A DNA stretch of 64,000 nt from Chiloscyllium plagiosum (taxonomy: Eukaryota). The first letter of the stretch is position 1; each line of letters opens with the position of its first letter. This document shows positions 9,293 to 56,859 of the stretch, piece by piece. The stretch is from the NCBI RefSeq assembly GCF_004010195.1, contig NC_057734.1, forward strand, positions 41,007,904 through 41,071,903. The letters are read 5' to 3'. Both the position numbers and the translations under genes were made by a program. Under the pieces are notes generated by a model that worked only from the letters and a program-made list of their open reading frames with translations, did no database searches and was not told the origin of the DNA.

Positions 9293-10373
9293 ATTCAAGG
9301 TTACCTGCTTTCTCCATTCCCCTTAACAGTACTGCTCTTTAACAAAACTGCCTCAAGTTGACAAAGTCTAATAGGGATAAAGAAATTCAATCTTCACCAG
9401 CTAAGCAGAATATTCAAGGAGAACTTAGAAACATATTTAACTACTTCATGAATTATTGACACTTCAATGCCTTTATCAATCCATGAAAAACTCAACCAAT
9501 TCTTATCTTCATTCCAACATGTCTCAAAGCATTTCCATGCGTTTGAACACTGCATAAAGTGCATTTATATGGATTAAATAGACTGCGCAGCTCAGAACCA
9601 GGTTGAAACAATTTTAGTTATATAGCAACTTTAACATTTCAAGATGTTTCACAGGGACATAAAGCAAAATATGACATTACATGGTACAGAGATATTAATT
9701 CAGATGCTCAAAAGCTTAGTTAAAGAGTTGGGTTTTAAGGACTGCCTTAGAAGAGGAAAGCAAAATCAAAAGGCAGAGATGTACGCAGGTAATTCTAGAA
9801 CTTAAGACCTACACAAGTGAAGACGTGGTTACCAATGCTGGGATTAAAATTGGTGATGCACAACAGGCCAGAATTGGGGAAGTGCAGATCTCAGTTGTCA
9901 GACTGGAGTGAATTACACAAATAGGGTGGGGCACAACCAGGAAGGATGCAAAAATGGGAACTTAAAATACATTGCTGCACCCTGAATCTTTACTGTCCAG
10001 CAAGCACTTGGGGTGATAGAGGAATGGGATTTAAGAGTTAACCAAAGAACAAAGTTTTGGATGAACTCAGATTCATCCAAAGATGTTGGAGGGAATCCTG
10101 AGGGACAGGATGTACATGTATTAGGAAAGGCAAGGACTGATTAGGGATACTCAACATGGCTTTGTGTGGGGGAAATAATGTCTCACAAACTTGATTGAGT
10201 TTTTTTGAAGTAGTAACAAAGAGGATTGATGAGGACAGAGCAGTAGACATGATCTGTATGGACTTCAGTAAGGCATTTGACAAGATTTCCCATGGGAGAC
10301 AGGTTAGCAAGGTCTCATGGACTACAGGGAGAACTAGCCATTTGGATACAGAACTGGCTCAAAGACAGAGTGG

Positions 10374-10555
10374 ATCAGTGGTGCTGGAAGAGCACAGCAA
10401 TTCAGGGAGCATCCGACGAGCAGCAAAATTCCTGATGAAGGGCTTTTGCCCGAAACGTCGATTTTGCTGCTCGTCGGATGCTGCCTGAATTGCTGTGCTC
10501 TTCCAGTTTGCTGATCCAGAATCTGGTTTCCAGCATCTGCAGTCATTGTTTTTAC
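10374..10555 (+). mobile_element. Non-autonomous PLE-derived fold-back mini-element with hammerhead
   Basis: 16-bp TSD ctcaaagacagagtgg (10358-10373, 10556-10571); inverted arms flank the hammerhead core. Confidence 0.85.
10420..10470 (+). ncRNA. Hammerhead ribozyme, intact core
   Basis: CUGAUGA (10432-10438)-A-GGGC-UUUU-GCCC-GAAA-CGUC; stem I GCAGCAAAAU/AUUUUGCUGC; predicted cut after 10459. Confidence 0.75.
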
Positions 10556-11989
10556 CTCAAAGACAGAGTGGTGGAGGGTGGTTTTCAGACTGGAGGCCTG
10601 TGACCAGTGGAGTGCCACAAGGATCAACGCTGGGTTCACTACTTTTCATCATTTATATAACTGATTTGGATGAGAGCATAAGAGGTATAGTTAAGTTTGC
10701 AGATGAGAGCCAAGGTTACCCCACATTAAAACAGGATCTTGATCAGATGGACCAGTGAGCTGAGAAGTGGCAGATGGAGTTTAATTTAGATAAATGAGGT
10801 ACTGCATTTTGGGAAAGCAAATCTTAGCAGGACTTATACACTTAATGGTAAGATCCCAGGGAGTGTTGCTGAACAAAGAGACCTTGGAATGCAGGTTCAT
10901 AGCTCCTTGAAAGTAGAGTCACAAGTAGGTAGGATAGTGAAGGCAGTGTTTGGTATGCTTTCCTTGATTGGTCAGAGTATTGGGTACAGGAGTTGGAGGT
11001 CATTTTGCTATACAAGACATTGATTATGCCACTTTTGGAGTACTGCATATAATTCTGGTCTCCTTCCTATCGGGAGGATATTGTGAAACTTGAAAGGGTT
11101 CAGGAAAGATTTACAAGGATGTTGCCAGGGTTGGAGGATTTGAACTATAGGGAGGGGTTGAATAGGCTGGGGCTGTTTTCCCTGGAGCGTCAGAGGCTGA
11201 GGGGTGACCTTAAAGAGATTTATAAAATCATGAGGAGCATGGATAGGGTAAGTAGACAGGGTATTTTCCCCTGGGGTGGTTGGGTCCAGAACTAGAGGGC
11301 ATAGGTTTAGGGTGAGAGGGGAAGGATTACAAAAGAGACCTAAGGGGCAACTTTTTCCACACAGAGGGTGGTGTGTGTGGGTGGAATGAGCTGCCAGAGG
11401 AAGTCATGGAAGCGAGTACAACTGCAACATTTAAAAGGCATTTGGATGGGTATATGAATAGGAAGGGTTTGGAGGGATATGGACTGGGTGCTGGCAGGTG
11501 GGACTACATTGGGTTGGGATATCTGCTCAGCATGGACATGTTGGACTGAAGGGTCTGTTTCTGTGCTGTACATCTCTATGACTCTATGGCATGCAGGTCA
11601 ACACCGAAGGAGAGCGAGAACCAGCTATAGGAGTCAGAGTTATACTTATGGTTGCGGACTAAATATTGACCAGAGAATCGAGGAATTTTTACCCGTCCCC
11701 CACCACAGCCATCCAACAGGAACCTTTTACAGGTGTCGGGAGTGGGGGAGATAAATAGACTACTTTTACAGTGCAACATAGGATCAGGACGACAGCTACT
11801 CAGGTTAGTCATGCCCAAAGGGTGCGAGGTGCAGTCAAGGCTTATTGAAAGCTAAAACAATTGCGACATGTGTATATGAGATGGCGGTGAGGGGAAGAGA
11901 GACAGAGACGGAGGGAAGACATTGAGGGTACTTTTAAAGGCAATGTAAACACTGCAGGATTTGAATGGGGGCGGCACCACCGACTCTAC

Positions 11990-12065
11990 CTTGTTTACTT
12001 TTACTGTCCGAGGGTGGCACCTTGCTGGGTCCTGCCGAAGCGGAACGTGCAGACTTCTTTTCCAT
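11990..12065 (-). CDS. RNF10: RNF10 coding exon 1
   Basis: MEKKSARSASAGPSKVPPSDSKSKQ (cf. the RSASAGP motif of human RNF10); GTAGAG donor; phase matches exon 2. Confidence 0.85.
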
Positions 12066-12439
12066 GTCTGGATCTTCCAGCGTCAGCTTCCAGCAGCTCA
12101 ACGGGAACGACGTGGCTGGTTGTGCCAACCGTTTTTCCACAGGGCATCGCGTAACGGGGCCTAACTTTAATCTTCATCATGGCGACCTCTGCATTGTGAC
12201 CAAATCTAAAGATGGCGAAAGTAAAGACGAGCGGAGCGAGGATCAGGGAGAGAGAGTGGAGGGGGTGGGGGACGTAATCGGCTTGCAACAAGCCGCTGGA
12301 GAGGAGTGGAGAGGGCCCAGCGCGTTGACTTGACCCCCACCCCGCGCTCCTGAAGCGGTATGGGTTTGTAAAGGCCGAGCTTCAGCAGTCCAGCACCGCT
12401 CCCAGTCCGTGAAGCAATGGCGACGAGTCGCCAGGAAGG

Positions 12440-12650
12440 AACCGGAGCACCCGGATGCAGGTGCTTTTATAGACCCTGGAGCCGCCGCGCATGCGTCCTC
12501 TGCACGAGAGTACTGCCGGGAATTGTAGTCTTTGCTCCACGTTCCGCCAATCATGGTGAGCCTTCCTCAGCGCATCTGTTCCCGTTGGTCACGTGATTCT
12601 CAGTCACAGCAGTCTCCTGCTTCCGCCACATCACAACCACGTAAAGGGTC
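12440..12650 (-). promoter_or_regulatory. RNF10 CpG-rich promoter
   Basis: Minus TATAAAAG 12471-12464; NRF1-like GCGCATGCGT ~12487; ZNF143/THAP11-type ACTACAATTCCCGGCAG ~12513-12529; CCAAT ~12547; E-box TCACGTGA ~12590. Confidence 0.7.
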
Positions 12651-12744
12651 TGGTGGTGTAGAGGTAGTATTACTAATTCCAGAGGCTGGAGTCCGCGGTT
12701 CAAGTCTCACCTGCTTTAGCAGGTGCAACAATCCAGGGTTTTGT

Positions 12745-15700
12745 GTTATTCATTTGTGGGGTTTAGGCATCACTCTCGGCAAGCATTGATAGCCCATCTC
12801 TATTTGCCCTTGAGAAGGTAATGGTGAACTACCTTCTTGAACTGCTACAATCCACTTGCTGTGGGTTGACCCACAATGCTGGTGGGGAGGGAATTCCAGG
12901 ATTTTGACCCAACAACTATGAAGGAAGGGCAGTATATTTCCAAGTCAAGATGGTGAGTGGCTTGGAGGGGAACTTGCAGGTGGTGGTGTTCCCAAATGGA
13001 AGTGATCGTGAGTTTGAAAGGTGTAGTCTAAGGATCTTTGGTGAATTTCTGCAGTTCATCTTGTAGATAGTACACACTGCTGCTACTGAGTGCCAGTGGT
13101 GGAGGGATTGAATGTTTGTAGATGTGGTGCCAATCAAGTAGGTTGCTTTGTCCTGAATGGTGTTAAGCTTCTTGAATGTTGTTGGAGCTGCACCCATCCA
13201 GGCAAGTGGGAAGTATTCCATCACACTCCTGACTTGTGCCTTGTGGATGGTGAATAGACTTTGGGATGGCAGGAGGTGAGTTACTGGCCACAGTATCCCT
13301 AGTCTCTGACCTGCTCTTGTAGTCCCTGTGACTATTTGGGGAGTCCAGTTGAGTTTCTGGTCGACGGTAACCCCAAGAATGTTGACAGTGGGGGATTCAG
13401 TGATGGTAATACTGTTGAATGTCAAGGGGCGGTGGTTAGAGTGTTTCTTATTGGTGATGGACATTGTCTGGCATTTTTGTGGCACGAAATGTTACTTGCC
13501 ACTTATCGGCCCAAGCCTGGATATTGTCCAGATCTTGTTGCATTTGAGCACGGACTGCTTCAATATCTGAGGAATGGTGCCGAACACTGCAATCACGCGA
13601 ACATCCCCATTTCTGACCTTATGACAAAGGGAAGGTCATTGATGAAGCAGCTGAAGATTGTTGGGCCTAGGACACTACCCTGAGGGAGTCCTGCGGAGAT
13701 GTCCTGGAGCTGAGATGACTGAACGTCCACAACCACAACCATCTTCCTTTGTGCCAAATATTACTCTAATCAGCGAAGTGGTTGCCCCAATACCCATTGA
13801 TTCCGATTTTGCCAGGGTTTCTTGATGCCATACTCGGTCAAATGCGGTCTTGATGTCAAGGGCTGTCACTCTCACCTCACCTCTGGAATTCAGCTCTTTT
13901 GTCCATGTTTGAACCAAGGCTGTAATGAGATCAGGAGCTGAATGACTCTGGTGAAACCCAAACTGGGCTTCACTGAGCAGGTTGTTGCTGATCAGATGCT
14001 GCTTGATAGCACTGGTGATGACCCCTTCCATCATTTTACTAATGATGGAGAGTGGATTGACTGGGTGTTGATTGGCCGGGTTGAATTTGTCTGGCTTTTT
14101 GTGTACAGGACATGCATGGACAATTTTCCACATTGTCAGGTAGATGCCAGTGTTGTAACTGTACTGGAAGAGCTTGGCAAGGGGAGCAGCAAGTTATGGA
14201 GCACTCATCTTCAGTACTATTGCTGGAATGTTATTAGGGCCCATTGCGTTTGCGGCATCCAGTCATTTCTTAATATCATGTTGTTGGAGACTGGTATCTG
14301 TGATGCTGGGGACCACTGGAGGAGCCTGAGATTGACCATCCACTTGGCACTTCTGACCAAAGATTGTTACAAATGCATCAGCCTTATCTTTTGCACTAAT
14401 GGGCTGGGCTCCTCCATCATTGAGGATTGGGATATTTGTGGAGCTGCCTCCTCCAGTGAGTTGTTTAATTGTCCACCACCATTCACATCTGGATGTGGAA
14501 GGACCGCAGAGCTTAGATCTGATCTGTTGGTTGTGGGATCGCTTAGCTCTGTTTATCACTTGCTGTTTATGCAGTTTGGCACACAGGTAGTCCTGTTTGG
14601 TAGATGACACCTCATTTTTAGGTATGCCTGATGCTGCTCCTAGCATGCCCTCCTGCACACTCCATTGAACCAGGGTTGATCCCCTGGCTTGATGGTAATG
14701 ATTGAATGGGGAATATGCCAGGCCATGTGCTGGAGTACAGTTCTGCTGCTATTGATGGCCCACAGCGCCTCATGGATGCCCAGTCCTGAGCTGCAAGATC
14801 AGTTTGAAGTCTGTCCCATTTAGCATGGTAACAGTGCCACACAACACGATGGAGGTTGTTCTCAACGTGAAGGCAGTACTTCACCTCCACAAGGACAGTG
14901 CGGTGGTCACTTTTGCCAATACTGTCATGGTCAGATAGTTCTGCAGCTGGCAGATTAGTAAGGATGTTTTTTCCTCATGTTGGTTCCTTCGCTATTTGCT
15001 GCAGACACAGTATAGCAGTTATATCCTTTAGGACCCGACCAGCCCAATCAGTAATGCTGCTGCCGAGCCACTCTTGCTGGTGGACACTGAAACCCCACAC
15101 CCAGAGTATATTTTGTGCCCTTCCCACCCTCAGTTCTTCCTCCAAGTGTTGCACAACCATGGAGGAGTACCGATTCATCAACTTAAGGAGGACAGTACGA
15201 GGTTTACAATGTAACCAATAAGAGGTTTCCCTGCCCATGTTTAACCTGAAGCCATGAGACTTCATGGGGTCTGAAATTGATGCCAAGGACTCCCAGGGCA
15301 ACTCCTTCTCAACTGTATACCACTATGCTGCCACCTCTGCTAGGTCTGTCCTGCCAGTGGGACAGGACACATGCAGAGATGGTAATGATGGTGTCTGAGG
15401 CGTTTTCTGTAAGGTATGATTCAAGCTGTTGCTTGACTAGTCTGTGAGACAACTCTCCCAATTTCAGCACTATTGGTAAGGAGGACTTTGCATGATCAAC
15501 AGGGCTGTTTGTCTTTTTGCCATTGTCTTTACCGATTCCAAGGTCAATGCCAGGTGATCCATCCGGTTTCATTTCTTTGTTGTGACTTTGTAGTGATTTG
15601 ATACAACTTAGTGGCTTGCTAGGCCATTTCAGAGGGCAGTTGAGAGTCAACCACATTGCTGTGGATCTGGAGTCCCATGTAGGCCAGACTAGGTAACGAC

Positions 15701-15920
15701 TGCAGAATTCCTTCCCTAAAGGGCATAAGTGTACCACATGGGTTTTTCTGACAATTGGAAATGGTTTCAGGGTCATCAGTCGACCCTTAATTTCAGATTT
15801 TTTTTTATTGAACTCAAATTCCACCATCTGCTGGTAGGATTCAAACCCAGGTCCCCAGAAAATTATGCTGGGCTTCTGGATTAAAAGTCAAGCAATAATA
15901 CCACTAGGCCATTGCCTCCC
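12745..15920 (-). mobile_element. Near full-length decayed CR1-group LINE (APE+RT) with a tRNA-derived 5' head
   Basis: A box TGGCCTAGTGG and B-box-like GGTTTGAATCC at the 5' end; KLGELSHRLVKQQ..ESYL (APE), ALDIKTAFDRVWH (RT), KAQVRSVMEY; 3' tail at ~12745-12870. Confidence 0.85.
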
Positions 15921-16599
15921 TGTGATTAAAAATGTCTACAAGCAGTTATTGGTGATGGGCTGTGAAAAGGTCAGAGAGGGTCACACATTTAGTAGAGCAG
16001 ACAATAACTAGGGTACGCAGGTAAGGGACAGGAGATTTGAGGAAAAGTGTTTTCTCCCAGATGATGATGGGTATCTGGAGCTCACTGTCTAAAAGAGTGG
16101 TTGAGGTGAAAATACCTGAAATACCATAGCATTCAAGGCTCCAGGTCATGTTGGCAAATGAGATTAAAATAGATGGCTGTTTGATGGCCTCTTTCTGGAC
16201 TGTAAAAACACTGACTCTAAATTGAAGTGAAAAGTAAGCAAGTTCTAAAGAAGATCAGCCACCTTAAAGCAAATGTGTTTTCTCTTTGCATTTGCTGGAT
16301 GGCCTATCATTTATTGTCAGCATATTTTGTATTTTGGTACATAGTACACATCTGTGTAAACATATAGTGCTAGTCCCACTAGGCGTCATTATCTAAAAGT
16401 CTTCGAGATTTAATACACAGGATAATTTTTAAAGCACAAACTGCAATCCCCTTACACATGTAAAATACTGAATAATACATTATAGTGGCTCCTTTTCCTT
16501 TCCTGAATTTCCACTGATGATAAAAATAATATGAAGAAAGTTTTTGAGTTTCCACAAAAAAGAATTGCATGGCAATATATAGTTTTGGTCCTTTCTCAG

Positions 16600-16760
16600 A
16601 TCTTTGAACTCTGACCATTCTGACAAAGGAGTCACTGAACGTGGAACTTTAACTCTGTCTTTCTCTCTGCAGATGCTGCCAGACCTACTGAGTTTCTCCA
16701 GCATTTTCTATTTTTCTTTCAGATTTCCAGGAACTCTGGTTGTTCGATTTTATTTTAGTA
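16600..16760 (+). mobile_element. Degenerate PLE 3'-end fragment with decayed hammerhead
   Basis: ttctgacaaaggagtcactgaacgtggaactttaac followed by the family tail cagatgctgccagacct..gagtttctccagca. Confidence 0.55.
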
Positions 16761-16828
16761 ATCCAATTGTCCAGCTCACTCATGACCTTTTTTAGTTCAT
16801 TTTGTCTCAGCTAAACTGTAACACACTT

Positions 16829-17006
16829 ATAAAAACCGAAAGAACTGTGAATGCTGGAAATCAGAAACAAAAACAGAAGTTGCAGGAAAATCTCAGCAGG
16901 TCTGACAGCAGTTCTGAGGAAGAGTCACTGGACCTGAAACACTAATTCTGATTTGTCTTCATAGGCGCTGCCAGACCTGCTGAGTTTTTCCAGCAACTTC
17001 TGTTTT
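16829..17006 (+). mobile_element. PLE-derived fold-back mini-element (second family)
   Basis: 12-bp TSD tgtaacacactt (16817-16828, 17007-17018); core CTGAGGA-A-GAGTC-actg-GACCT-GAAA at 16914-16939. Confidence 0.75.
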
Positions 17007-17959
17007 TGTAACACACTTGCCCTTGAGTCAAAATGCCAAACAATCTTACAGATGAGACAAATCAAGCCCCCTTGTGGTCCCTTGGCAGTGATTAATAAGA
17101 ATTAATACAGCTTAATTGGTGCAGAAAAAAGGTAACTGCTGGAAATACTCAACAGGTCAGGCAGCCTCTGTGGAGAGAAAAAAACAGTTAACATTTCAGG
17201 ACAGCAAAATGTATTCAGAACATTCAATCTTATCATTTAGCTCAATCATACAGATTAACCAACAAATGCCTACCGTTTGGCAGAGTATTTTGAATTCTGT
17301 ACCCTGGGTAACAAATGTTCAGATTTGGTTGGTAGCATTCTTGTGTCTACATCAGAAAAATGTGAGACTTGGTCCTTCTTGGTATTTTTCCCATTGGTTG
17401 TAAGCTGTAAGTGATTTAAATACCTTCTGTAAATCAACTCTTGTTTTGGAAGTTTGATGCAGAGTTGGCATAGATGTCTACAGACCTGACAGCTTATGCT
17501 GTTGTTGATACTTGGAGGAACTTAAGCAGCTGTAGGTGGGCACATCACCGATGTTGTGAGTTTGTCATATAGGGTCCTTAAAGCAAACTAAAACAAATTA
17601 CAATGCTAGTCTTCACATGGGCCATTCTGGTTCAGTTGTTTCCCAGGAGAGGTGGTCTATTGCATTATAGAAGCTGCTTTTCTTTTGTTTCATTTGTACT
17701 CACCACCTTGATGTCATTTGCCCTGATACTGTTCTCCATTAAATCCCTGGCTGGAGACTCTGGAGGCATTCATGTGGGAGACATGTCATCTAATTTATGG
17801 AAGCAGATCAAAGGTGGGCAAGAAAACCTTAAAATGAAACAAAGGACAGTGGATGCTGAAGATCTAAAACATAAACAGAAATTGCTGGAGAAACTCAGCA
17901 GGTGTGGCCACATCTGGAGAGAGAAAACAAAGTTAACATATTGAGTGCTGTGGCCCTAC

Positions 17960-18790
17960 TGATAATAACAGGAAAACACATATTTGATCTCACCCTCACC
18001 AAACTGCCTGTCAATGACAGTATCAGTAAGAGTGAACACTACGCTGTCCTCATGGAGACTAAATCCTGCCTTCACATCATGTTGTGTGGCACTATGCGGA
18101 ATGGAACCAATTTCAAATAGAAAAAGCAACTCAAAGGGCTCAACAACTTTATGATCTGGCTTATCCTCCCACTTTACAATTACCATGATGCCAGGGGATC
18201 TACCTGATTCAGTGAAGTGTGCAGAAGCAGCTCCAGGTACATTTAAAAATGAGGTGTTAATCAGGTGAAACTACAATGCAGGACAATTTCCTTGCCAAAC
18301 ATATCTATCTCACTCTGCTTCAGCTGTCCCCAATATCACAGATGTCAGTCTTCAGCCAATTCAACTCTGCATGTGATATGAAGAAATAGTTGGAATTTCT
18401 GGCTACTGCAAAGGCTATAGGCCTATCACCGAGTGTAGCATCAAGGTGTTCCAGCAAAACTGGAGCCAGTGAGAATCCAGGGGAAGCTCTCAACTGGTTG
18501 GAGTCATACCTATATAGGAAGAATATTGTGATGATTGGAGGTCAGTCATCACAGCTCCAGGACATCTCTGAAGGAGTTCCTCAGGGTACTATCCTAGGCG
18601 CAACCATCTTCAGCTTCTTCATCAATGACCTTCACTCCCTCATAACATCAAAAATGGGATGCTCACTGGTTGTACAAAGTTCAGCACCATTCACAACTCC
18701 TCAGACAATGAAACAGTTCATGACCAAATGAGCAAGACCTGGATAATATTGAGGTTTGGGCTGATAAATGTACACCATACAAATGGCAGA
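17960..18790 (+). mobile_element. Fragmented copy of the CR1-group LINE family at 12745-15920
   Basis: GVPQGTILGATIFSFFINDL and shared internal segments. Confidence 0.65.
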
Positions 18791-18799
18791 CAATGACTG

Positions 18800-19169
18800 T
18801 ATTCAACAAGTGGTGTTCTGCAGGGATCTGTTGTAGGACCTCTGCTCTTTGTGATTTTTATAAATGACTTAGATGAGGAAGTAGAAGGGCGGGTTAGTAA
18901 GTTTGCCAAGGACACGAAGGTTGGAGTTTTGGATAATGTTGAGGGCTGTTGTAGGTTGCAATAGGACATTGACAGAATGCAGAGCTGAGCTGAGAAGTGG
19001 CAGATAGCGTTCAACCTGAAAAAGTGTGAAGTGATTCATTTTGGAAGGTTGAATTTGAGTGCAAATTACAGGGTTAAAGGCAGGATTCTTGGCATTGTAG
19101 AGGTACAGAGGGATCTTGGGGTCCATGTCCTTAGATCCATCAAAGTTGGCATCCAAGTTGATAAGGTTG
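18800..19169 (+). mobile_element. CR1 RT fragment, 5' half (split by the ERV)
   Basis: gtggtgttctgcagggatctgttgtaggacc..ataaatgacttagatgag; continues at 23228. Confidence 0.8.
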
Positions 19170-19834
19170 TGTGGGAAAAGATTTGCTAACCCACGATAGG
19201 CCCGCAAAAGCAAAATTGGCCAAACTGTACCAAAACACCCAGAATTCCCAAGCAGCTCACAATCCGAATTAGACAGCATGCAGACAAGGGAATACACTTT
19301 AAGCTCCCACGATCAATGACAGAGCACCACAGATATCTCAAAGTTCCAAGGGCAGTTTCACAACCCAGCAATACCAAAGCCACGCAAAGAGCAGGTCAGA
19401 CAGAGAGGCACCAGCAAGGACACACTCCAGGAACAGGACAATGGAAGTACCTCAACACTTCAGAGGAGACATTAACACCTACCTGTGAAGAGGAATGGAA
19501 CTGTCGATACTATCAGGATGTTGCATTGTGTGAAGGAACAGGACATACATCCGATAACTGTTTTCCAATTAGCATCCTTGAACCTAGATTACTCCCATTT
19601 CCAGATACCGATTAAGAAATGGGAAACTACAATGTGTCATTGTGCAGCATTACTAGAAAACTGGTCTCATCCTCAGCTCTGGGAAGAGAAATCTGATCTA
19701 CCTGCACAGATTGTCAGTTCTGTGTCAGCTGGTCTGTTTCTCTTCCAGCGATATCATTTGCAATAAACTGTTTGTCAATTTCACTTCGAGCTGTGTTTTG
19801 TGATCTCTAGCCTATTGGGCAAATTTCTCTGACA
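19170..19834 (+). repeat. ERV 5' LTR
   Basis: TGTGGGAAAAGATTTGC...GCAAATTTCTCTGACA imperfect terminal inverted repeat; AATAAA at 19762-19767. Confidence 0.9.
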
Positions 19835-19837
19835 GTT

Positions 19838-19854
19838 TGGCGTTAGTCGGTAGG
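19838..19854 (+). promoter_or_regulatory. Primer binding site, tRNA-Ser-like
   Basis: TGGCGTTAGTCGGTAGG versus TGGCGTAGTCGGCAGG, the complement of the vertebrate tRNA-Ser 3' end. Confidence 0.75.
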
Positions 19855-20344
19855 CCCTTTTTTTCCTCTCTCAACAGGGTAAGCGAACCTCACATTTTAA
19901 ATTTAACCCGATTCGTACCTAGCGGCCAGCCCTGCCTGGAGGTCAGACCAGAGAATGGCTGGACGACTGCGGAGGGTGGTCACATTTCTGATTTGCAATG
20001 AATTGGCGTCAGCTACTTCATTTGGGAAATTGAGTAGTGACTCTGGCCTGTGCAAGTGGGCACTTGGCTCAAATTGTTAACTGACATTTAAGCTACCATG
20101 TCTGGGCCTGTAGAAGTCTTCTGGTGGGAAAGTAAGTTAACTGGCAGCCGATAATTCGGTACTAAACAGCGTGGACTGGGCTTGTGGAAGTTCTCACCTG
20201 TGCTAAGTTAATTACCGAAATATTTGCAACAAACCTTAATTTGGCCCACGCATGATCCACCTTGAGCCAGGATTTCTGTCACGAACCTGTTCTAGCCAGG
20301 AGAAAGACGGTCGGGCAGAGAAAGTTAGGCACAATACGTGGAGA

Positions 20345-20553
20345 TTCTGGATCAGTGGTGCTGGAAGAGCACAGCAATTCAGGCAGCATCCGACGAGCAG
20401 CAAAATCGACGTTTCGGGCAAAAGCCCTTCATCACAGGGCTTTTGCCCGAAACATCGATTTTGCTGCTCGTCGGATGCTGCCTGAATTGCTGTGCTCTTC
20501 CAGCACCACTGGTCCAGAATCTGGTTTCCAGCATCTGCAGTCATTGTTTTTAC
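20345..20553. mobile_element. PLE-derived fold-back mini-element nested in the ERV
   Basis: 15-bp TSD cacaatacgtggaga (20330-20344, 20554-20568); ~87-bp inverted arms; same family as 10374-10555. Confidence 0.88.
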
Positions 20554-21219
20554 CACAATACGTGGAGAGACTGCTCATCAAATTCTCGCTTTACTACTGA
20601 CAGATCCACAGCTCAAACAAAATTGACTTGGGCCCAGCTATGTTGTCCTGTCCTGTGGTTTCTAAGTATTTATTTTGGGTGTGTCTGCTTTTTCTGTGCT
20701 TATGAGTGCTTGCTTTGTCAATTTCAGTTCTCCCACCTGACTGTGTTTGTTCAGCGCTTACGTGTTTGTTTGCGGTCAGCGATGACTGGCTTAAGTAACT
20801 TTTATTGCCTAACCTGTCAATCACTCACTACCTGTATTCCGTTAGCTCTCTATCGCTGTGTTTTTTCCTCGAAACCTAAACTTAGAAGTCATCCCAAGAC
20901 ATCCAGGACACCATGGGGGCACAGACATCAACCGTCTGCTGGGAGATGCCAGCTGTGGGAGCTGGGCAACCCCAACCATGTGTTGAGGAAGGTCTGGGGC
21001 TGAAAATGAACAAGAGTGCCCAGAAAAGGCATGGTAAATACGTAAATTGCAAGAACAAGGTGGAAAGGTCCATATCTGATCCTAACAACGACCTGGACTG
21101 CTATGAAACTGGAAGGACAGCCCCAATGGGCACATGCCACCCACTGCAAGAGGGGTCCACAACCTATGAACAGGGACCACACAGAGGAAGACACCACTCC
21201 AACCCCCCTCCCCCCGAGG

Positions 21220-22657
21220 ATGGATCCAGCTGCTTGTGGCAGCCATCGCCATCAGCACTCTCGGCCTGAGCTATCTGACCGTCACACTGTGGCTTGCTGG
21301 TAAACAGGGACAAGGGGCAGGACATTTCATAACCCACCGTGACTTACGGGCCAATACCTTCCTCAAAATGGCCCATGGGTATGCCCAGAGATTTAATCAG
21401 ACCCGCTGCTGGGTCTGCACTTGGTCCCTGACCACTCTCACGGAGGCATTCCTTTAGCCTCAATCCCATTAAATATCTCTGACATGGCGGAACGGTGGCT
21501 AGACCCAGCTAGGTCCCTGAACTAACCACACTTGCCATGGCCAACTACGGGGACAACAGCCCAGCCCGCTGGAGATCGGCAGGGTACCACCTGGTGAAAT
21601 TTACAGGGTGGTTTTACCCGGCCTACAACCTCTCCCATGAGCCCCCAGCCCTGACCATTGCTGACACTAACACACAAGGGCCATCTATGGGATCCATCTG
21701 TTTAAAAAGCATACAGCCATTCAGATGGGAGGCTGGCTGTAGCCAGTGCACTGACTCCCTAGTCCTAACTCCCGCAGCATGCCGATCCGCTGCAGAAGGC
21801 AGCATTTTAAACCTACAGGTCCTCAACAGGACCAGCCAGAACACCGCCTCCCTCACCATCTGACAGGGATCCAGACCCGCCATCTCCGACCCTACAACGG
21901 CACCTATTTTATCTGTGGCCACAAAGCCAACCCTGGTTGCCGTTATCCTGGACTGGGAGCTGCTATGTCGGGTATGCCCATGACCCACAGCAGACGAGCC
22001 CTTGCTGCCATTAAAGCAGGTCTCTAACTGATATCACCCCACTCTGCAACCCTGCGGTTACAGGTAGAAGCCCACAAACTCGCCGCCACACTGGAGGAGG
22101 TGGCAAACTCCACAGCAGAAGCACTCGCCCAGCTGAATGCAGAGGCTGTTACCATCCGTACTGTGGCTCTGCAGAACAGGATGGCCCTGGATTACCTGCT
22201 CGCTGCGAAAGGGGACACACGTGCCCTTATTGGTGCTGACTGCTGCACTTACATTCCTGACCCCAGTGAAAACAACACAGACCTGGCTCAACATATCCAG
22301 CAGGCAGCTTCTGTCCTGCATGATCAGAACTCCCACAGGGACTTATGGGACTGGGCAGCCTCCTGGCTGGGGTCACGGGGCACAGCCCTACTACAGGGAT
22401 TGATAGCCCTCATTGCTGACCTTATAGCGCTAGCCATGGCCATCCGAGTGTGCTGCTCAAGCCTATGTGCAATCTTGTTACCCTCTGCTCCCTCCACCAC
22501 TCAGCTAGCACAGATCCACTGGCGGAACATCCCTGCCCCTGGCATTGGCACTGCTGAGCAAGACTCGGATACTGAGAGCCAACTGTCCGATACGGACCCC
22601 CCACCCAACAATCCCCCTGGCTCCAGCAACATTGCCCCCTTCTTGTCCCTCCCCTAA
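21220..22657 (+). pseudogene. env: Retroviral gamma-type envelope pseudogene
   Basis: Hydrophobic leader, CWVC (21407-21418), YNGTYFICG, ISD LQNRMALDYLL (22169-22201), R-X6-CC (CX6CC with TGT>CGT), TM helix; frameshifts and stops; no clear furin site or fusion peptide. Confidence 0.88.
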
Positions 22658-22660
22658 GCA

Positions 22661-22678
22661 AAACAAAAAATGGGGGAA
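22661..22678 (+). promoter_or_regulatory. Polypurine tract
   Basis: aaacaaaaaatgggggaa immediately before the 3' LTR. Confidence 0.8.
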
Positions 22679-22679
22679 T

Positions 22680-23222
22680 TGTGGGAAAAGATTTGCTAAC
22701 CCATGATAGACCCACAAAAGCAAAATTGGCTAAACTGTACCAAAACACCCAGAATTCCCAAGCAGCTCACAAGCCGAATCAGACAGCACGCAGACAAGGG
22801 AATACACTTTAAGCTCCCAGCAAGGACATGCTCCAGGAACAGGACAATGGAAGCACCTCAACACTTCAGAGGAGACATTAACTCCTACCTGTGAAGAGGA
22901 ATGGAACCGGTCGATATTGTCAGGATGTTGCATTGTGTGAAGGAACAGGACATTCCTCCGATAACTGTTTTCTAATTAGCTTCCTTGCAATTAGATTATT
23001 CCACTTCCAGATACATTGTAGTTTCCCATTTCTTAATCAGTGTCATTGTGCAATATTACTAGAAAACCGGTCTCATCCTCAGCTCTGGGAAGAGAAATCT
23101 GATCTACCTGTACAGACTGTCAGTTCTGTGTCAGCTGGTCTGCTTTCTCTTCCAGCGATATAGTTTGCAATAAACTGTTTGTCAATTTCACTTCGAGCTG
23201 TTTTGGGCAAATTTCTCCGACT
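22680..23222 (+). repeat. ERV 3' LTR
   Basis: Homologous to the 5' LTR but lacks ~100 bp and ~20 bp segments, has a 25-bp inversion, and ends CT instead of CA. Confidence 0.9.
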
Positions 23223-23227
23223 GTTTG

Positions 23228-23830
23228 TTCAGAAGGTGGGTTGGCTTTCATTAGCAGGGGGATTAAGTTTAAGAGCTGGAGGTTATGCTATAGCTCCATA
23301 AAGCCCTAGTCAGACCATACTTGGAATATTGTGTTCAGTTCTGGTCACCTCATGTAGAAGCTTTAGAGAGGGTGTAGTGTAGATGCTGCCTGAACTGCAG
23401 GGCATGTCTTATGAAGAAAGGTTGAGGGAGCTAGGGATATTCTCATTGGAGCAATGAAGAATTAGAGGTGCCTTGATAGAGGTATTCAAGATGAGGAGAG
23501 GGATAGATAGAGTGGATAACCAGAGACATTTTCCCAGGGCAGAAATGGCTATCACAAGGGGGGCATAATTTTAAGGTGATTAGTAGAAGGTTTAGGGGAA
23601 GATTTCAGAGGCAGGTTCTTTACACAGAGAGTGGTGAGTGCGTGGAATGCACTGCCAGCAGTGGTAGTAGAGTCAGATACATTAGGCATATTTAAGTAAC
23701 TCTTGGATATGCACATGATGATAGTAAAATGAAAGGTATGTGGATTAGTTTGATCTTCGAGTAGGATAAAAGGTCAGCACAACATCGAGGGCTGAAGGGC
23801 CTGTCCTATGCTGTACTGTTTTATGTTCTA
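23228..23830 (+). mobile_element. CR1 fragment, 3' half and 3' UTR
   Basis: Resumes the CR1 sequence after the TSD; ends ggctgaagggcctgtcctatgctgtactgttttatgttcta. Confidence 0.8.
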
Positions 23831-23954
23831 AATTCTATTTCAAAAGAGAAATTTAACCATCGCCCCTGACATTCAATGGCATCACTATCACTGAATTCCC
23901 TTCTATCAACACTGGAGGTTATCACTGACCGAGCTGGACTAGTCATATCAGTAT

Positions 23955-24603
23955 GCAAAAGTGAGGACTGCAGACGCTGGAAACCAGAGTTTAGATTAAA
24001 GTGGTGTTGGAAAAGCATAGCAGGTCAGACAGCATCCAAGGAGCAGGAAAATCAATGTTTTGGGCAAAAACCCTTTATCAGGAATGGAGGCAGGGAGCCT
24101 CCAGGGTGGAGAGATGGGGGGGGTGAGACTGGTGAGAAGGTAGCAAAGAGTACAATAGGTGAATGGGGGGTGGGGATGGAGGTGATAGGTCAGAGGGGAT
24201 AGGTGGGAAGGGAGATTGTCAGGTAGGACAGGTCATGAGGACAGTGCTGGGCTGGAAGGTTGGAAATGGGGTAAGATGGGGAGGAGGGGAAACGAGGAAA
24301 GTGGTGAAGTCCACATTGATGCCCTGGGGTTGAAGTGTTCCGAGGCGGAAGATGAGGCATTCTTCCTCCAGGTGTCAGGTGGTGAGGGAGCGGTGGTGGA
24401 GGCTGCCCAGGACCTGCATGTCCTTGGCAGAGTGGGAGGGGAGTTGAAATGTTGGACCACGGGGCGGTGGGGTTGATAGGTGCGGGTGTCCTGGAGATTT
24501 TCCCTAAAGCACTCTGCGAGGAGGCGTCCAGACTCCCCAATGTAGAGGAGACTACATCAGGAGCAACGGATACGATAAATGACATTGGTGGATGTGCAGG
24601 TGA
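23955..24603 (-). mobile_element. Penelope-like element 3' portion (GIY-YIG plus 3' UTR with decayed hammerhead)
   Basis: Minus FTCTSTNVIYRIRCS*CSLLYIGE..VVQHFNS; cctgataaagggtttttgcccaaaacatt; TSD agtcatat(c/a)agtat at 23941-23954 and 24604-24617. Confidence 0.85.
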
Positions 24604-25190
24604 AGTCATATAAGTATTGTGGCTACAAGAACCTGTCAGAGGTTAGGAATCTTGCAATGAGTAACTCACCTCCAGGCTCCCAAAGTCAGTCCATCATCTA
24701 TAAGGGATGTCAAGAATGTGATGGAACACTTCTTCTGTCTGGAAGCGTGCAGCTACAACACTCAAAAAGTTCAACACGATCCAGGATAAAGCAGCAATCA
24801 TTTGATTGGTACCACATCCACAAAGAATTACTCCATCCAACAGCTGTGTACAATCAATAAGGTGCACTGCAGAAATTCATCAAGGCTCCTTAGACAACAT
24901 CTTATAAATCTGTGATGACTTCCATCAAGAAGGACACAGGCAGCAGATACATGGAAACACCGCCACCTACAAGTTCCCTCCAAGCCACTCGCCACCGTGA
25001 CTTGGAAGTATATTGCTCTTCCTTCAGGATTGCTGGTCAAAGTTCTGGAACACACTCCCTAACAGTATTCTCGGTGTATCTACACCAAATGGACTTTAAT
25101 AAGACGGCAGCTCACAACTATCTTCCCAAAGGAAACTATGGATGGGCAATAAATGCTGTCCCAGCCAACAATTCTCGCATTCCATGAGTG
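24604..25190 (+). mobile_element. 3' part of CR1-group LINE (host of the PLE; upstream part at ~23850-23954)
   Basis: Collinear with 12745-13400 in reverse; ends gatgggcaataaatgct..attccatga. Confidence 0.75.
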
Positions 25191-25399
25191 AACTTTGTAT
25201 TTTCTGGGAGGTGGTCTCCATGTCTCTCATTACTACAAAATAAATACAGACTCAATTATTTAAGTAGTCTGGGCACTTGTTTTAAGATCTCAGTGCTCGC
25301 ATTTACTGGATATTAGGGTCTTTTGGTACAACAGAGTATTGTTTGATTCGAAAGCAGTAACTGCCATCAACTCCCAGCTGACTCATGACCCACTTGCTG

Positions 25400-25460
25400 C
25401 CTGGCCCCGGAAGCGGAAACCAGATACACGGGAGGGGGGTCAGAAACAAGATGGCTGTCT
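25400..25460 (+). promoter_or_regulatory. COQ5 proximal promoter
   Basis: Tandem ETS/GABPA-type CCGGAAGCGGAAA ~25407-25419; YY1-type CAAGATGGC overlapping the ATG; CpG-rich. Confidence 0.6.
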
Positions 25461-25613
25461 GTCGGTTACTGGGGTCACTTCCAGTCGGGCTCTTTATTTG
25501 TCGCCGGAATCTTGTGGCTCCCGTTTTTGTGAGAGCTCGTTCCGCTAGAGCCGAGGAAAAGCAAACTCATTTCGGCTTCGAGAACGTGTCCGAGTCGGAA
25601 AAGGCGGAGAAAG
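25451..25613 (+). CDS. COQ5: COQ5 exon 1 (ubiquinone C-methyltransferase, mitochondrial presequence)
   Basis: MAVCRLLG...EEKQTHFGFENVSESEKAEK; GTGCGA donor. Confidence 0.92.
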
Positions 25614-39056: not shown

Positions 39057-39066
39057 NNNNNNNNNN
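39057..39066. other. Assembly gap (10 N)
   Basis: Run of n in the sequence. Confidence 1.
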
Positions 39067-54177: not shown

Positions 54178-55980
54178 TGTTTACCTGACAACAAAAAAAA
54201 AAATCCAAGTAATGAAATCAATCAACTGCACTAATCTAGAATGGAATCAATAAAAATGTAAATCATGTATTTAAAAGTATATTAGAGGCAGTCAAAATCA
54301 ACAGAAGTTAGAAAGTCCCACTAAATGGAGAACACAGATGAATATTTCAGACAAGGATCCTTCGTTTCCAAAATAAATTGTTCGCTATATTGCTGTTTGT
54401 TTTAAACAGAATGTTTTTTGTACTTCGAAACAGGATTTTAGTATATTTACAGTTTAATCCTATCAGATTCCCAACACACCAGGAACATAAGAGCACACAA
54501 GAAATGGTATAGAAAATGTGAAGTGGTTAAGCCTCAATCCAATTTTTTTTTTGGAAACTGAATTACTCTTCCAAACTAACATTTACAACACCATCTACTT
54601 CCAGTCTCACTTCAAGCAACAACACATCCAACTCTGCAAGTTATCCTTAAACTGCTCTTTCCTCCTTTATCACAAGGATTCTTTAAAATAATGTCATATT
54701 AATCTCCTTTTCAAGTTTTTTTTTGAAGTGTTTTCAAATTTTGTTTGATAATGCTATTCTGAAGGACTTTGAATATTTTACTTTAAAAAACTGTTGCTGA
54801 GCCAGTCTGAAAATGCAATTACTAAATTTTCATCTGCCAATTAAGCAAAGCCCTTAATATAGGTTTAACAGAAAACCTGGACAGAAAATTCAATTTAAAA
54901 AGTCTACACACTTGAATAACTCATACAACCAAAATTCTCTTCCAAGTTCTCTGTATGGGCATCTAAATTTCTTAATTCATTTTTAATGTTTCATTCCTTA
55001 TTTCTCTCAATTTGGTACTACGGCAAGTTAAATATTGCTGGTAAAATAAAAACTTTCGACAAAGCTTTTTATCTTGCGTCCATTAGGACGATTCAGAAGA
55101 AACACCAAAACTAAAAAGGGGGAAAATGATTTTTGATATTTTTTGTGAATTGCCCCAATACAAAAAGCTTCAGCAAAAGGAGGTCTGTTATACATTTTTG
55201 TTTTAAAAAAAATAGTTCACAATTTACTACATTTTGTGGACTGTTTCCATTGAAAGACATTAAAAATCTAGCACATTGCCATTGTGTGTTTGGGGAGAGA
55301 AGGCAAAGAGAAAGAGAAAAAAAATAAATGAAAAAAAAAGGAGGAGCAAGAGTGAGCAGAGATTTAAAAACAAGAAAATACTCAGCAAGTTTGGCACCAG
55401 TTACAGAAGACAAAAACAAAAAGGGTTAATGCTTCAGGTTGTGACCTTTCATCAGAAGCGGATCAGAGAAGGGAGGGAAAGAGGGAGCTGGATGTGGAGA
55501 GAAAGGGAGTGGTGGAGAGAAATAAAAGGAGGGGAGGGGAGGGGAGATGGAGGGAGGCGGCCAGCCGAAGATTAATGCCCGTTTGCTCAGTCCCAGTCCA
55601 GCTCGACCAGGGCAGGCTGGCGACGATCTGCAACTCCTTGCGGCCATCAGTCGGTTGCTGGATGAATCCCGATAAAGCGAAGAGATCCGGGACTCAGCAT
55701 CTCCCGCCCAAAAGACAAAACAAATTCGCGCATCGCTCTCTGAGAAAACAAAACGGTCTCGGCGGCAGTCGGCGTCGTCGCTTTTGAAGGGAGGGAGCGG
55801 ACAAAGAGAGGGAACACCGTAACCATCGCCCCATCCCGCCCTCCGGGGCATTCTTTTCGCACCGAGTCTCTTTAACGGTTTTTAAATTTTTTTCTTTGAT
55901 GCCTGAAGCCGCCCTAACAACAAGGCAATCCCCAGTGATCGCGCACGACTGGACAGGGGCGTGCGTGCCTTGAGACTCAC

Positions 55981-56330
55981 TTCTAGTGGTACGGTAGCAA
56001 CGACACTGGGAAACGTCCGGAGCCTCAGCCCTGTCTCCGACTCTGTCCCGGTCCCGCTCCCGAGCAACCGAGTACAGCCAGCTCCCCCCCGCGGGCACCG
56101 TCACATAGCGGCAACCCAGCACCCAGGCCCCACCCCCCCGACCGTCACCACCTCGGCTCCCATTGGTCAGCGCACGCCTCCTCCGCCCACCCATTGGCCC
56201 GGACCATCAATAACCCCGCCGCTCCTTACCCCCGCGTTTTGTTTCGGACCAGCAGGCAGCGCGCCCGCCGACCGCCGCGTGTGGGTGATGGGAGGGGGCG
56301 GGGCGAGTGTCTTAGCAACCGGCGGCTGCT
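55981..56330 (-). promoter_or_regulatory. DYNLL1 non-coding exon 1 and CpG-island promoter
   Basis: Donor AA|GTGAGTC at 55981/55980; two CCAAT boxes (~56162, ~56193); GC boxes; CpG-rich 55550-56400; TSS not defined. Confidence 0.7.
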
Positions 56331-56859
56331 TCCATTTATTTATTTACCCATCCACTCAGCGACCGTCGTCCGCCGCCTGAATCAACCTGAACCTGTGAGG
56401 GAAGCATTGCTTTCGAATATCTCCTGCTGCAGGTGACCATAGATAGGGGTTAAACCCCCTAAAATGGTTTATAATGAATGCCAGTGATGCGAATGGTGGG
56501 GGGAAGTGCTGTCCTGGTGCAACCAAAAAAAAATCATCTTAACAAACCCATTGGGGAACATAAGGTCAAATAAATCAACCAGGCAGGGACTCCCTAAATG
56601 TAGTTTACTAAATCACCAATAGTTTTCACCCCAACTTAAAATCTTTACCCACACTTTAGGTCATTAAAACTGCAAACAAAACTTGTTGGCAATATACAGT
56701 ATTTCTGGAAAATAGTTTATGAATTAACTGTCAGCCTTGTCTAGGCGTACCATCTCAAGCCAAGATGTTTGTGTAAAGACCTGCGTTTAATCTAACAAAG
56801 TCTGGTGTTGCAATCAATGTGCTGCACTGTTAGAGATGTTTTTTGGAATGGATGTCTGT

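Follow-up and report, generated by a model that had tools for sequence, protein, structure and literature searches.

A dead, deleted env-carrying endogenous retrovirus between RNF10 and COQ5 in Chiloscyllium plagiosum, probably descended from a class I, epsilon-like retrovirus of sharks

The window, a 64,000-nucleotide stretch of Chiloscyllium plagiosum DNA (contig NC_057734.1), carries a two-LTR provirus at 19170-23222, 2.2 kb 5′ of the COQ5 start codon (Table 1). Its placement between RNF10 and COQ5 by the first-pass annotation is correct: exons of both genes were found, one gene on each side. RNF10 lies on the minus strand (exons at 3.5–7.4 kb; first coding exon at ~11990-12065); on the plus strand, the coding sequence of COQ5 begins in the exon at 25451-25613, and its other exons extend to 40.3 kb. 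The exons were recognised by short motifs of the two proteins. Since the two genes are divergent, the provirus is intergenic. It splits a LINE, an interruption that had been overlooked in the first reading: in tblastx comparisons the right half of the LINE resumes where the left half ends, and LINE copies without interruption in sequencing contigs show the insert-free site. The target site duplication is short and imperfect (GGTTG/GTTTG), and can be read either as 5 bp with one transversion or as 4 bp (GTTG) with one extra T, both within the 4–6 bp of ERVs; rough odds are 1.2–5.6 to 1 in favour of 5 bp. The 5-bp duplication reported earlier is therefore not secure, and because both lengths need one change, a class III call is not supportable from the duplication.

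Table 1. Features of the provirus and its insertion site (window positions; + and. denote strand)
Feature	Position	Strand	Detail or basis
Host LINE, left half (end of reverse-transcriptase frame)	18700..19169, outer edge approximate	+	tblastx to window LINE copy 10603-10936
Left target duplication	19165..19169 (GGTTG) if 5 bp; 19166-19169 if 4 bp	+	sequence
5′ LTR	19170..19834	+	sequence; 665 nt, TG...CA, AATAAA at 19762
Primer binding site, tRNA-Ser type	19838..19856	+	match to published 18-mer; 3 nt behind 5′ LTR
Candidate splice donor 1	19878..19884	+	sequence word
Candidate splice donor 2	20131..20137	+	sequence word
Secondary insertion in leader	20330..20568	.	209-nt palindromic LINE-tail piece (20345-20553) between 15-nt direct repeats
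Possible gag 5′ stub	20913..21045	+	ATG in good context, MGxxxS (myristoylation-like start)
Second half of MLV/epsilon-type integrase C-terminal domain	21046..21160	+	Pfam and PDB matches; WKGPY motif
Gamma-type env, near full length, broken	21170..22657	+	sequence, profile and homology searches
Polypurine tract	22660..22679	+	sequence; directly before 3′ LTR
3′ LTR	22680..23222	+	sequence; 543 nt, TG...CT, AATAAA at 23169
Right target duplication, imperfect	23223..23227 (GTTTG)	+	sequence
Host LINE, right half	23228..23800, outer edge approximate	+	tblastx to same LINE copy, 11008-11271

The LTRs are direct repeats, as had been read. The 3′ copy ends in CT, one base off the canonical final A, and has gaps of 104 nt and 19 nt relative to the 5′ copy, in which a 35-nt segment (19604-19638) is inverted relative to the 3′ LTR. 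With the inverted segment excluded, the two differ by a K2P distance of 0.069 over 506 sites (bootstrap 95% 0.047–0.095). LTR divergence had been suggested as a measure of age; with the rates for mammals and for sharks that Han 2015 (PMC4422223) cites, it gives 16 to 156 million years, and because the rates span this range, the safe conclusion is that the insertion is old, dating back at least tens of millions of years.

Behind the 5′ LTR lies a primer binding site (PBS) that matches an 18-mer printed in the ERV literature apart from one additional base and three mismatched positions, a match unique on both strands of the 64-kb window. The 18-mer, which carries no tRNA label where it is printed, is presumably of Ser type; on that label, the Ser PBS of the first-pass annotation holds, and the element shares the tRNA-Ser PBS of ERV-S. 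No tRNA genes are present in the window for comparison. Donor-like words occur at 19878 and 20131, as claimed, and are candidate splice donors. The leader is about 830 nt long, and its 19835-20330 portion folds no better than shuffled sequences (z 0.14). The predicted polypurine tract (PPT) is likewise in place, so that a PBS follows the 5′ LTR and a PPT precedes the 3′ LTR, as in other ERVs. The 209-nt insert within the leader, with its own 15-nt duplication, went unseen in the first reading; its arms (87 nt) are 98% complementary, and comparable LINE-tail pieces lie at 10371-10560 and 23966-24074 of the window.

The env gene is disrupted: its reading frame shifts three times or more and contains one internal stop codon. 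Its longest open piece (22028-22657, 209 aa) corresponds to TM. As described earlier, it is a gamma-type remnant ending at the PPT: CWVC lies at 21407-21418, the ISD at about 22169-22204 and the stop codon at 22655-22657, and the hydrophobic anchor is kept, while CX6CC lacks its first Cys. Searches with env returned no near relative, the best match having 54% identity across 54% of the TM piece; the closest named matches, from sawfish and stingray, reach 33–41% identity. A Pristis pectinata RefSeq 'PABLB-like' env aligns to the locus as four pieces spread over SU and TM, and the Hypanus sabinus RefSeq 'PABLB-like' env is another gamma-type relative, with an open frame where the present one is broken. 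Filovirus GP2 proteins were the top PDB matches of TM; we rejected a filovirus origin in favour of a shared gamma-type fusion fold. A gamma-type env is found in ERV-S and class III elements, as here, and because class I shares it, it is not diagnostic of class III.

The open full-length frame and intact CX6CC of a co-opted env are both absent. The potential for co-option raised in the first-pass annotation thus finds no sign at this locus, and intact chondrichthyan env ORFs have already been surveyed (bioRxiv 10.64898/2026.05.06.723177). The syncytin-like ORFs described in that survey resemble this env in being gamma-type with CxxC, ISD, CX6CC and anchor; they are open, whereas this env is broken and lies between both LTRs. 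The survey describes 295 candidates and ties its catshark envs to epsilon-like pol.

Directly before env, about 38 codons of pol survive, so the earlier statement that there is no pol does not stand. These codons match Pfam MLVIN_C at 36.2 bits (cut-off 29.2; E 4.9e-9), and their sole PDB match is MLV integrase (2m9u, E 1.8e-8). A library search with the integrase tail gave 236 matches at E<=0.001, the top true match being a basking shark protein with 61% identity; among the 150 matches listed, 44 were scanned and 42 of these carry MLVIN_C, the other two being repeat proteins. Four relatives with a reverse transcriptase (RT) were seen, and in all three tested the MLV-group RT is the best match (in one example 439 bits, versus 184 to foamy RT). 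An atlas search with the tail placed MLVIN_C at 0.87, below other clusters, which is a lead only, and a word-indexed search for the parent pol gave two candidates, neither of them a match. The 3′ edge of the gag-pol deletion lies at ~21040-21055, and since the integrase likeness starts only at ~21,045, the break falls inside the integrase C-terminal domain. Upstream of it, 20913..21045 is a possible gag 5′ stub, judged by its start codon context and MG start; a Pfam search of leader plus stub, in nine read-throughs and any frame, gave no match, and the nucleocapsid is deleted. Nearly all of gag-pol is gone and env is retained, but an integrase tail remains.

Sequencing contigs show that the element belongs to a multi-copy family in two organisms, with near-identical pieces in both (1 difference in 407 nt and in 420 nt). 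Because no contig piece joins the family to the flanks of this locus, this near-identity does not establish orthology. One contig crosses the deletion junction (20893 to 21083) and differs from this locus at 17 positions, plus 8 gap letters, in ~185 nt; it is 9% diverged, runs ~38 nt past the junction and is unlike this locus 5′ of 20893. This contig hints that the deletion is common to another copy, which would make for a non-autonomous lineage. Additional env-deleted forms, in both organisms, skip from ~21,330-21,360 to 22,480-22,500, and another contig follows the leader to 20771 and then continues for 1260 unlike letters. Contig cover is ~10-fold higher over the LTR than over env, which, with depth not being a copy number, hints at many solo LTRs in the family. 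The view of the element as a non-autonomous env-carrying derivative thus stands as regards the retained env, the internal deletion and the multi-copy family, with a shared deletion hinted at by one contig.

The assignment to class III/ERV-S is not upheld: the target duplication is ambiguous, PBS type is described as labile among ERVs (PMC4724089), and the sole pol remnant is of class I type. Some observations weigh against class I, whose duplication is usually 4 bp: 5 bp is mildly favoured here and duplications are 4 bp in 15/15 crocodilian ERV1 families, although the gammaretrovirus Rev-A makes one of 5 bp, and Ser-type PBSs occur in the SnRV-like CmiERV scaffold 2 (PMC4422223), ERV4 CrocERV36 and XtERV-S (PMC8278194). 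The GPY/F-bearing MLV-type integrase tail seen here is that of class I, and its absence, expected of class III, is not observed. According to Chong 2014 (Table 1), GPY/F-type integrase motifs are present in ERV1 and absent in ERV3 and ERV4; the marker is not absolute, since in Vargiu 2016 chromo and/or GPY/F motifs were scored for 39/216 class III chains. Also against class I, clade III RT loci are the more numerous across six chondrichthyan genomes, 2843 versus 2018 for clade I. Because no RT is left, the class call rests on ~38 codons, and these make a class I parent, epsilon-like rather than ERV-S, likely.

In a comparison by eye with published elephant shark elements, the integrase tail points the same way. 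The epsilon-like CmiERV lineages II and III (scaffolds 324 and 2324, clade Mu; PMC4422223) have an integrase tail of the same kind, with the common pattern W.GP[YF].vL.tT.tA.k...W.H.sHCK, and share with this element a long leader, a donor word a short way past the PBS, an MG start (here that of the possible gag stub), a 3-nt gap before the PBS and an env that ends at the PPT; the 3-nt gap is no marker, because both complete Han elements have it. No LTR likeness to them was noticed by eye, and scaffold 324 differs in having another PBS, a clearly more distant env and a retained gag and pol. By contrast, CmiERV scaffold 2 (lineage I, SnRV-like, clade Huo; PMC4422223) has a Ser-type PBS and an env, in both SU and TM, of the same group as here, again by eye, while its integrase ends in WKGPF and then a non-MLV-type stretch, and it has full gag-pol with a gag that lacks the MG start. 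The earlier description of a little-described cartilaginous-fish lineage is thus right as to the fish pool (basking shark, sawfish and stingray matches), less so in that an elephant shark ERV already in print is similar in PBS and env. We found no literature on a Ser-primed epsilon-like fish ERV and no published description of this family, which may already carry a name in Repbase or Dfam.

An ERV-S origin, as first read, is the least probable of the alternatives. As described for XtERV-S (PMC8278194) and HERV-S (PMC4724089), these elements combine a Ser PBS with a gamma-type TM, as here, and XtERV-S, like this element, has a CxxC near the SU start; a 5-bp duplication is possible, and HERV-S env is reported to group with PABL env (PMC4724089), the closest named envs here being 'PABLB-like'. 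The deleted copies Xt-S4 to S22 likewise keep two LTRs, PBS, leader, gag 5′ end and PPT; those copies are not described as retaining env, whereas this element kept it (PMC8278194). Against such an origin, the MLV/epsilon-type integrase tail adjoins env with no dUTPase between, whereas XtERV-S is described with an ERV-L-type pol, a dUTPase after integrase, clean 5-bp duplications, a 158-nt leader (about a fifth of the present one) and no myristoylation signal (PMC8278194). The duplication here is ambiguous, and no GPY-type word occurs in the XtERV-S text or nine text supplements, a weak point as figures may be pictures (PMC8278194). More plausible, and still unlikely, is a cross-class chimera, in which SnRV-like (clade Huo) LTRs, a Ser PBS and 5-bp integration would have been combined by template switching with a class I integrase-tail-env block, the product then spreading without its own gag-pol. 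CmiERV scaffold 2 has the same Ser-type PBS with a different integrase tail, its TM ectodomain is alike at 45/70 residues (hand count), with RWxSAGY and SWLGS common to both, 5 bp is mildly favoured, and class I env is reported to be common in class III ERVs (PMC4724089; PMC8278194). However, in leader length and MG start the element looks epsilon-like, no resemblance of its LTRs to those of scaffold 2 stood out by eye, and an env exchange plus a PBS switch accounts for the same facts.

The strongest of the competing accounts, though one we consider improbable, concerns how the deletion arose: a full-length provirus would have integrated and later lost gag-pol by chromosomal deletion, so that an env-only lineage never moved, a course compatible with a class I parent. 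Other post-insertion damage at the locus (LTR gaps, inversion, LINE insert) and the contig that departs from the leader at 20771 and continues with 1260 nt of dissimilar sequence, as expected of a longer copy, speak for it; the 9%-diverged contig that spans the same junction, and contig cover just 5′ of the junction as high as over env, speak against it. Reverse transcription of an RNA spliced from an alternative donor close to the start of gag to an acceptor within the integrase tail is very doubtful. The MLV SD′ retroelement is reportedly a precedent, class I env acceptors tend to lie in the integrase-tail region, where the junction falls, and an AG/GT-like word occurs at ~21,055. However, both leader donor-like sites are kept unspliced, the breakpoint is mapped only approximately, and no skipped segment with GT...AG ends was found among 15 of the 107 contig joints.

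We therefore regard this dead, old provirus, most of whose gag-pol is deleted, as a probable descendant of a class I, epsilon-like retrovirus of sharks. Its anatomy, its integration within a LINE between copies of a short duplication, the class I-type integrase tail before env and the related copies in two organisms are direct observations. Under this reading, a genomic RNA would have lost one large segment that began near the start of gag and reached midway into the C-terminal domain of integrase, while retaining all cis signals (LTRs, PBS, ~830-nt leader, PPT). The deleted RNA would have been packaged, primed by tRNA-Ser, reverse-transcribed and integrated by the Gag-Pol of a helper, probably an intact relative, and env would have survived because it lies 3′ of the break, not through selection. 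Later decay would have been neutral, leaving LTRs 7% apart, frameshifts and a stop in env, and a LINE tail in the leader. The data show no present function of the provirus, and this element lends no support to env co-option.

Collectively, these results illustrate that PBS and target duplication alone mislead, as the class call changes once 38 codons of integrase tail are recognised and the insertion junctions are recounted. In sharks, the same env group apparently stands behind integrases of two types, one in this element and the other in CmiERV lineage I, a testable case of env exchange between clades. If the chimera were true, the locus would preserve, at the level of a junction, a fossil case of 'env snatching' between the two principal shark retrovirus clades, and a non-autonomous lineage without gag-pol but with env would be the reverse of the usual env loss; the junction in many copies together with SnRV-like cis signals would then be of interest for retrovirus evolution. 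As it stands, the element is an unremarkable relic of a type already known, and it contributes a further ERV family and a deleted form to a group with sparse annotation.

Both LTRs, a primer site and, directly upstream of the 3' LTR, a purine tract define the element at 19170..23222 as a provirus, in agreement with the first-pass annotation, and both candidate splice-donor words that it listed are present in the leader sequence. Using short motifs to find exons, we also confirmed that the provirus is intergenic, between the minus-strand gene RNF10 (first coding exon ~11990-12065) and the plus-strand gene COQ5 (beginning at 25451, 2.2 kb downstream of the 3' LTR and in the same direction as the provirus). 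The two genes lie head to head with their first coding exons ~13 kb apart (12400-25450), LINE pieces and the provirus filling the gap, and each has a CpG-rich patch (11.75-12.75 kb and 25.25-26 kb). Beyond the most distal COQ5 exon located (40.3 kb), a third CpG island at 55000-57000 probably marks where the next gene begins. A 10-N assembly gap (39057-39066) lies within COQ5.

Features of the provirus, in window coordinates
Feature	Position	Strand	Details
5' LTR	19170-19834	+	TG...CA
LINE-tail insertion in leader	20330-20568		209 nt; near-perfect palindrome, 87-nt arms, 98%; 15-nt duplication
env	~21170-22657	+	P0002 match in four pieces
3' LTR	22680-23222	+	TG...CT

The element had been read as lacking pol, which our searches contradict. 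Positions 21046-21160 encode the second half of an integrase C-terminal domain of MLV, class I type (Pfam MLVIN_C, 36.2 bits versus a 29.2 cut-off), whose sole PDB match is MLV integrase. A search of the full library with this tail gave 236 hits, the best true hit being a basking shark protein (61%); MLVIN_C was present in 42 of the 44 hits scanned among the 150 listed, the remaining 2 being repeat proteins. For each of the three RT-bearing hits that were compared, the best match is MLV-group RT, a result that separates class I from foamy viruses only, since the PDB lists contain foamy RT but no ERV-L, ERV-S or SnRV RT. Integrase likeness starts only at ~21,045, so the large deletion ends inside the C-terminal domain. 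Upstream, an ATG at 20913 with an MGxxxS start, following a leader of ~830 nt (insert subtracted), may be the gag start; its reading frame gave no family match. ERV integrase C-terminal pieces also occur as exons in predicted turtle, toad and newt host proteins (P0011, P0013, P0014, P0101, P0129; names include LBH, CEFIP, syntaxin-18 isoforms and a MINDY-domain protein), representing gene-model artefacts or exonised ERV pieces.

The 'PABLB-like' env of the sawfish Pristis pectinata (P0002) aligns across three frames, indicating that env is near full length but disrupted by three or more frame changes and an in-frame stop. The CX6CC motif is without its first Cys. Pfam (below cut-off), PDB and Atlas all identify the TM piece as gamma-type, as had been claimed; its nearest relative is the contig protein P0006 (54% identity over 54% of the piece), followed by the 'PABLB-like' envs of a stingray (Hypanus sabinus, 41%) and the sawfish (38%). 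Near the SU end (21960-21976), one contig from public sequencing runs has 60 letters versus 15 at the provirus locus. Being broken, this env is no candidate for co-option, and no intact copy of the family was found in the contigs of four public runs, which are too short to exclude one.

The provirus interrupts a LINE, its left flank matching a second LINE copy to 10936 and its right flank resuming at ~11008 of that copy; uninterrupted copies in contigs of public sequencing runs reveal the empty site. Against it there are five surplus bases on the right, GTTTG, versus GGTTG on the left, which fits a 5-bp TSD with one transversion or, equally with one change, a 4-bp TSD with an extra T. The 5-bp TSD proposed earlier is therefore imperfect and only slightly favoured (odds of 1.2 to 5.6 to 1 over 4 bp, with rates drawn from the element's own LTR pair), so that the TSD cannot decide class. 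At 23219-23227, the GTTTG that follows the 3' LTR is identical to the pentamer that follows the 5' LTR, and the last base of the 3' LTR is changed, by chance or as a trace of odd end processing or conversion. The leader carries a later LINE-tail insertion; a comparable palindrome occurs at 10371-10560, so the hairpin may either characterise the family or reflect an inversion that happened more than once.

The primer site begins 3 nt behind the 5' LTR and differs by one extra base and three mismatches from an 18-mer of two published ERV tables, which we take to be the tRNA-Ser complement; no other match as good to the 18-mer exists in the 64-kb window. Computed without a 35-nt segment inverted between the LTRs (19604-19638 and 23010-23044; 3 mismatches once turned), LTR divergence is 22 transitions and 11 transversions over 506 sites (K2P 0.069, 95% 0.047-0.095); 104 nt and 19 nt are absent from the 3' LTR. 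The dating that had been suggested gives 16 to 156 million years, on the rates given in Han 2015 (2.2e-9, mammalian; 2.2e-10, an assumed shark rate; PMC4422223).

Contigs of four public runs from two organisms, A and B, were aligned to 20560-23500 at 85% likeness. Three runs covered 30/30 bins and the fourth 29/30, mostly with pieces of 85-95% identity in both organisms, which establishes a multi-copy family. LTR cover was ~10x env cover (depth not being a copy number), in keeping with many solo LTRs. Near-identical pieces across the deletion junction, each with a single difference (over 407 nt in A and over 420 nt in B), probably come from the provirus locus itself. The search for copies with the same deletion yielded a single contig (X1 record 2), ~9% diverged, that spans 20893 to 21083, ~38 nt past the junction, and hints that the deletion predates insertion, an order we lean towards. 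Another contig of that run (X1 record 1) tracks the leader to 20771 before 1260 unlike letters and might be a longer copy. Five contigs in two runs, from both organisms, jump from 21,327-21,361 to 22,481-22,497 without most of env, so more deeply deleted forms exist.

The assignment to ERV-S and class III was not borne out. In a crocodilian survey (PMC4299795), TSDs are 4 bp in 15/15 ERV1 families and mostly 5 bp in ERV3/ERV4; GPY/F is given as an ERV1 feature that ERV3/ERV4 lack, and is also carried by some SnRV- and Ovex1-like ERVs. Because the provirus has a GPY/F-type tail, we do not file it under ERV-S. In human and chicken, Jern 2005 found GPY/F to be confined to gamma-like ERVs, with class III not determined (PMC1224870); Vargiu 2016 gives chromo and/or GPY/F in 39/216 class III chains, so GPY/F absence is not an absolute class marker, and describes PBS usage as unstable (PMC4724089). 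Rev-A, a gammaretrovirus, makes 5-bp TSDs (PMC4422553; TSD and motif context also in PMC11905727 and PMC2717909). XtERV-S (PMC8278194) is unlike the provirus: its leader is 158 nt long, its Gag is not myristoylated and a dUTPase follows the integrase. Overall, the first-pass observation is partly confirmed and its interpretation partly supported.

We compared the elephant shark elements of Han 2015 (PMC4422223) by eye. The provirus resembles SnRV-like scaffold 2 (lineage I) in its Ser-type PBS and env group (45/70 TM ectodomain residues alike by hand count, versus 50/70 with P0006), but the scaffold 2 integrase tail is non-MLV. The MLV-type tail is that of Han's two epsilon-like elements; of these, scaffold 324 combines a long leader, an early donor and an MG start with a different PBS and an env that is more distant. 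Features of both described shark lineages thus come together in the provirus. Read boldly, these features would indicate a cross-class chimera, which we consider improbable; cartilaginous fish genomes are rich in both clades (2018 RT loci of clade I and 2843 of clade III; PMC11089739; see also PMC6001957, PMC4977317). The simpler interpretation is an epsilon-like virus that switched its primer and took its env from a pool that the clades share, and we think it reasonably probable that the whole parent was such a class I virus. A 2026 preprint reports 295 open env frames in 16/36 chondrichthyan species and ties catshark env frames to epsilon-like pol (10.64898/2026.05.06.723177).

Under the epsilon-like reading, a genomic RNA most likely lost, in a single step, a region reaching from close to the gag start into the middle of the integrase tail, and kept all cis signals. 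Helper Gag-Pol, we infer, would have copied and integrated this RNA, env surviving by its position, and the integrated copy would later have decayed. The element is an ERV with an internal deletion and a retained env, likely of class I.
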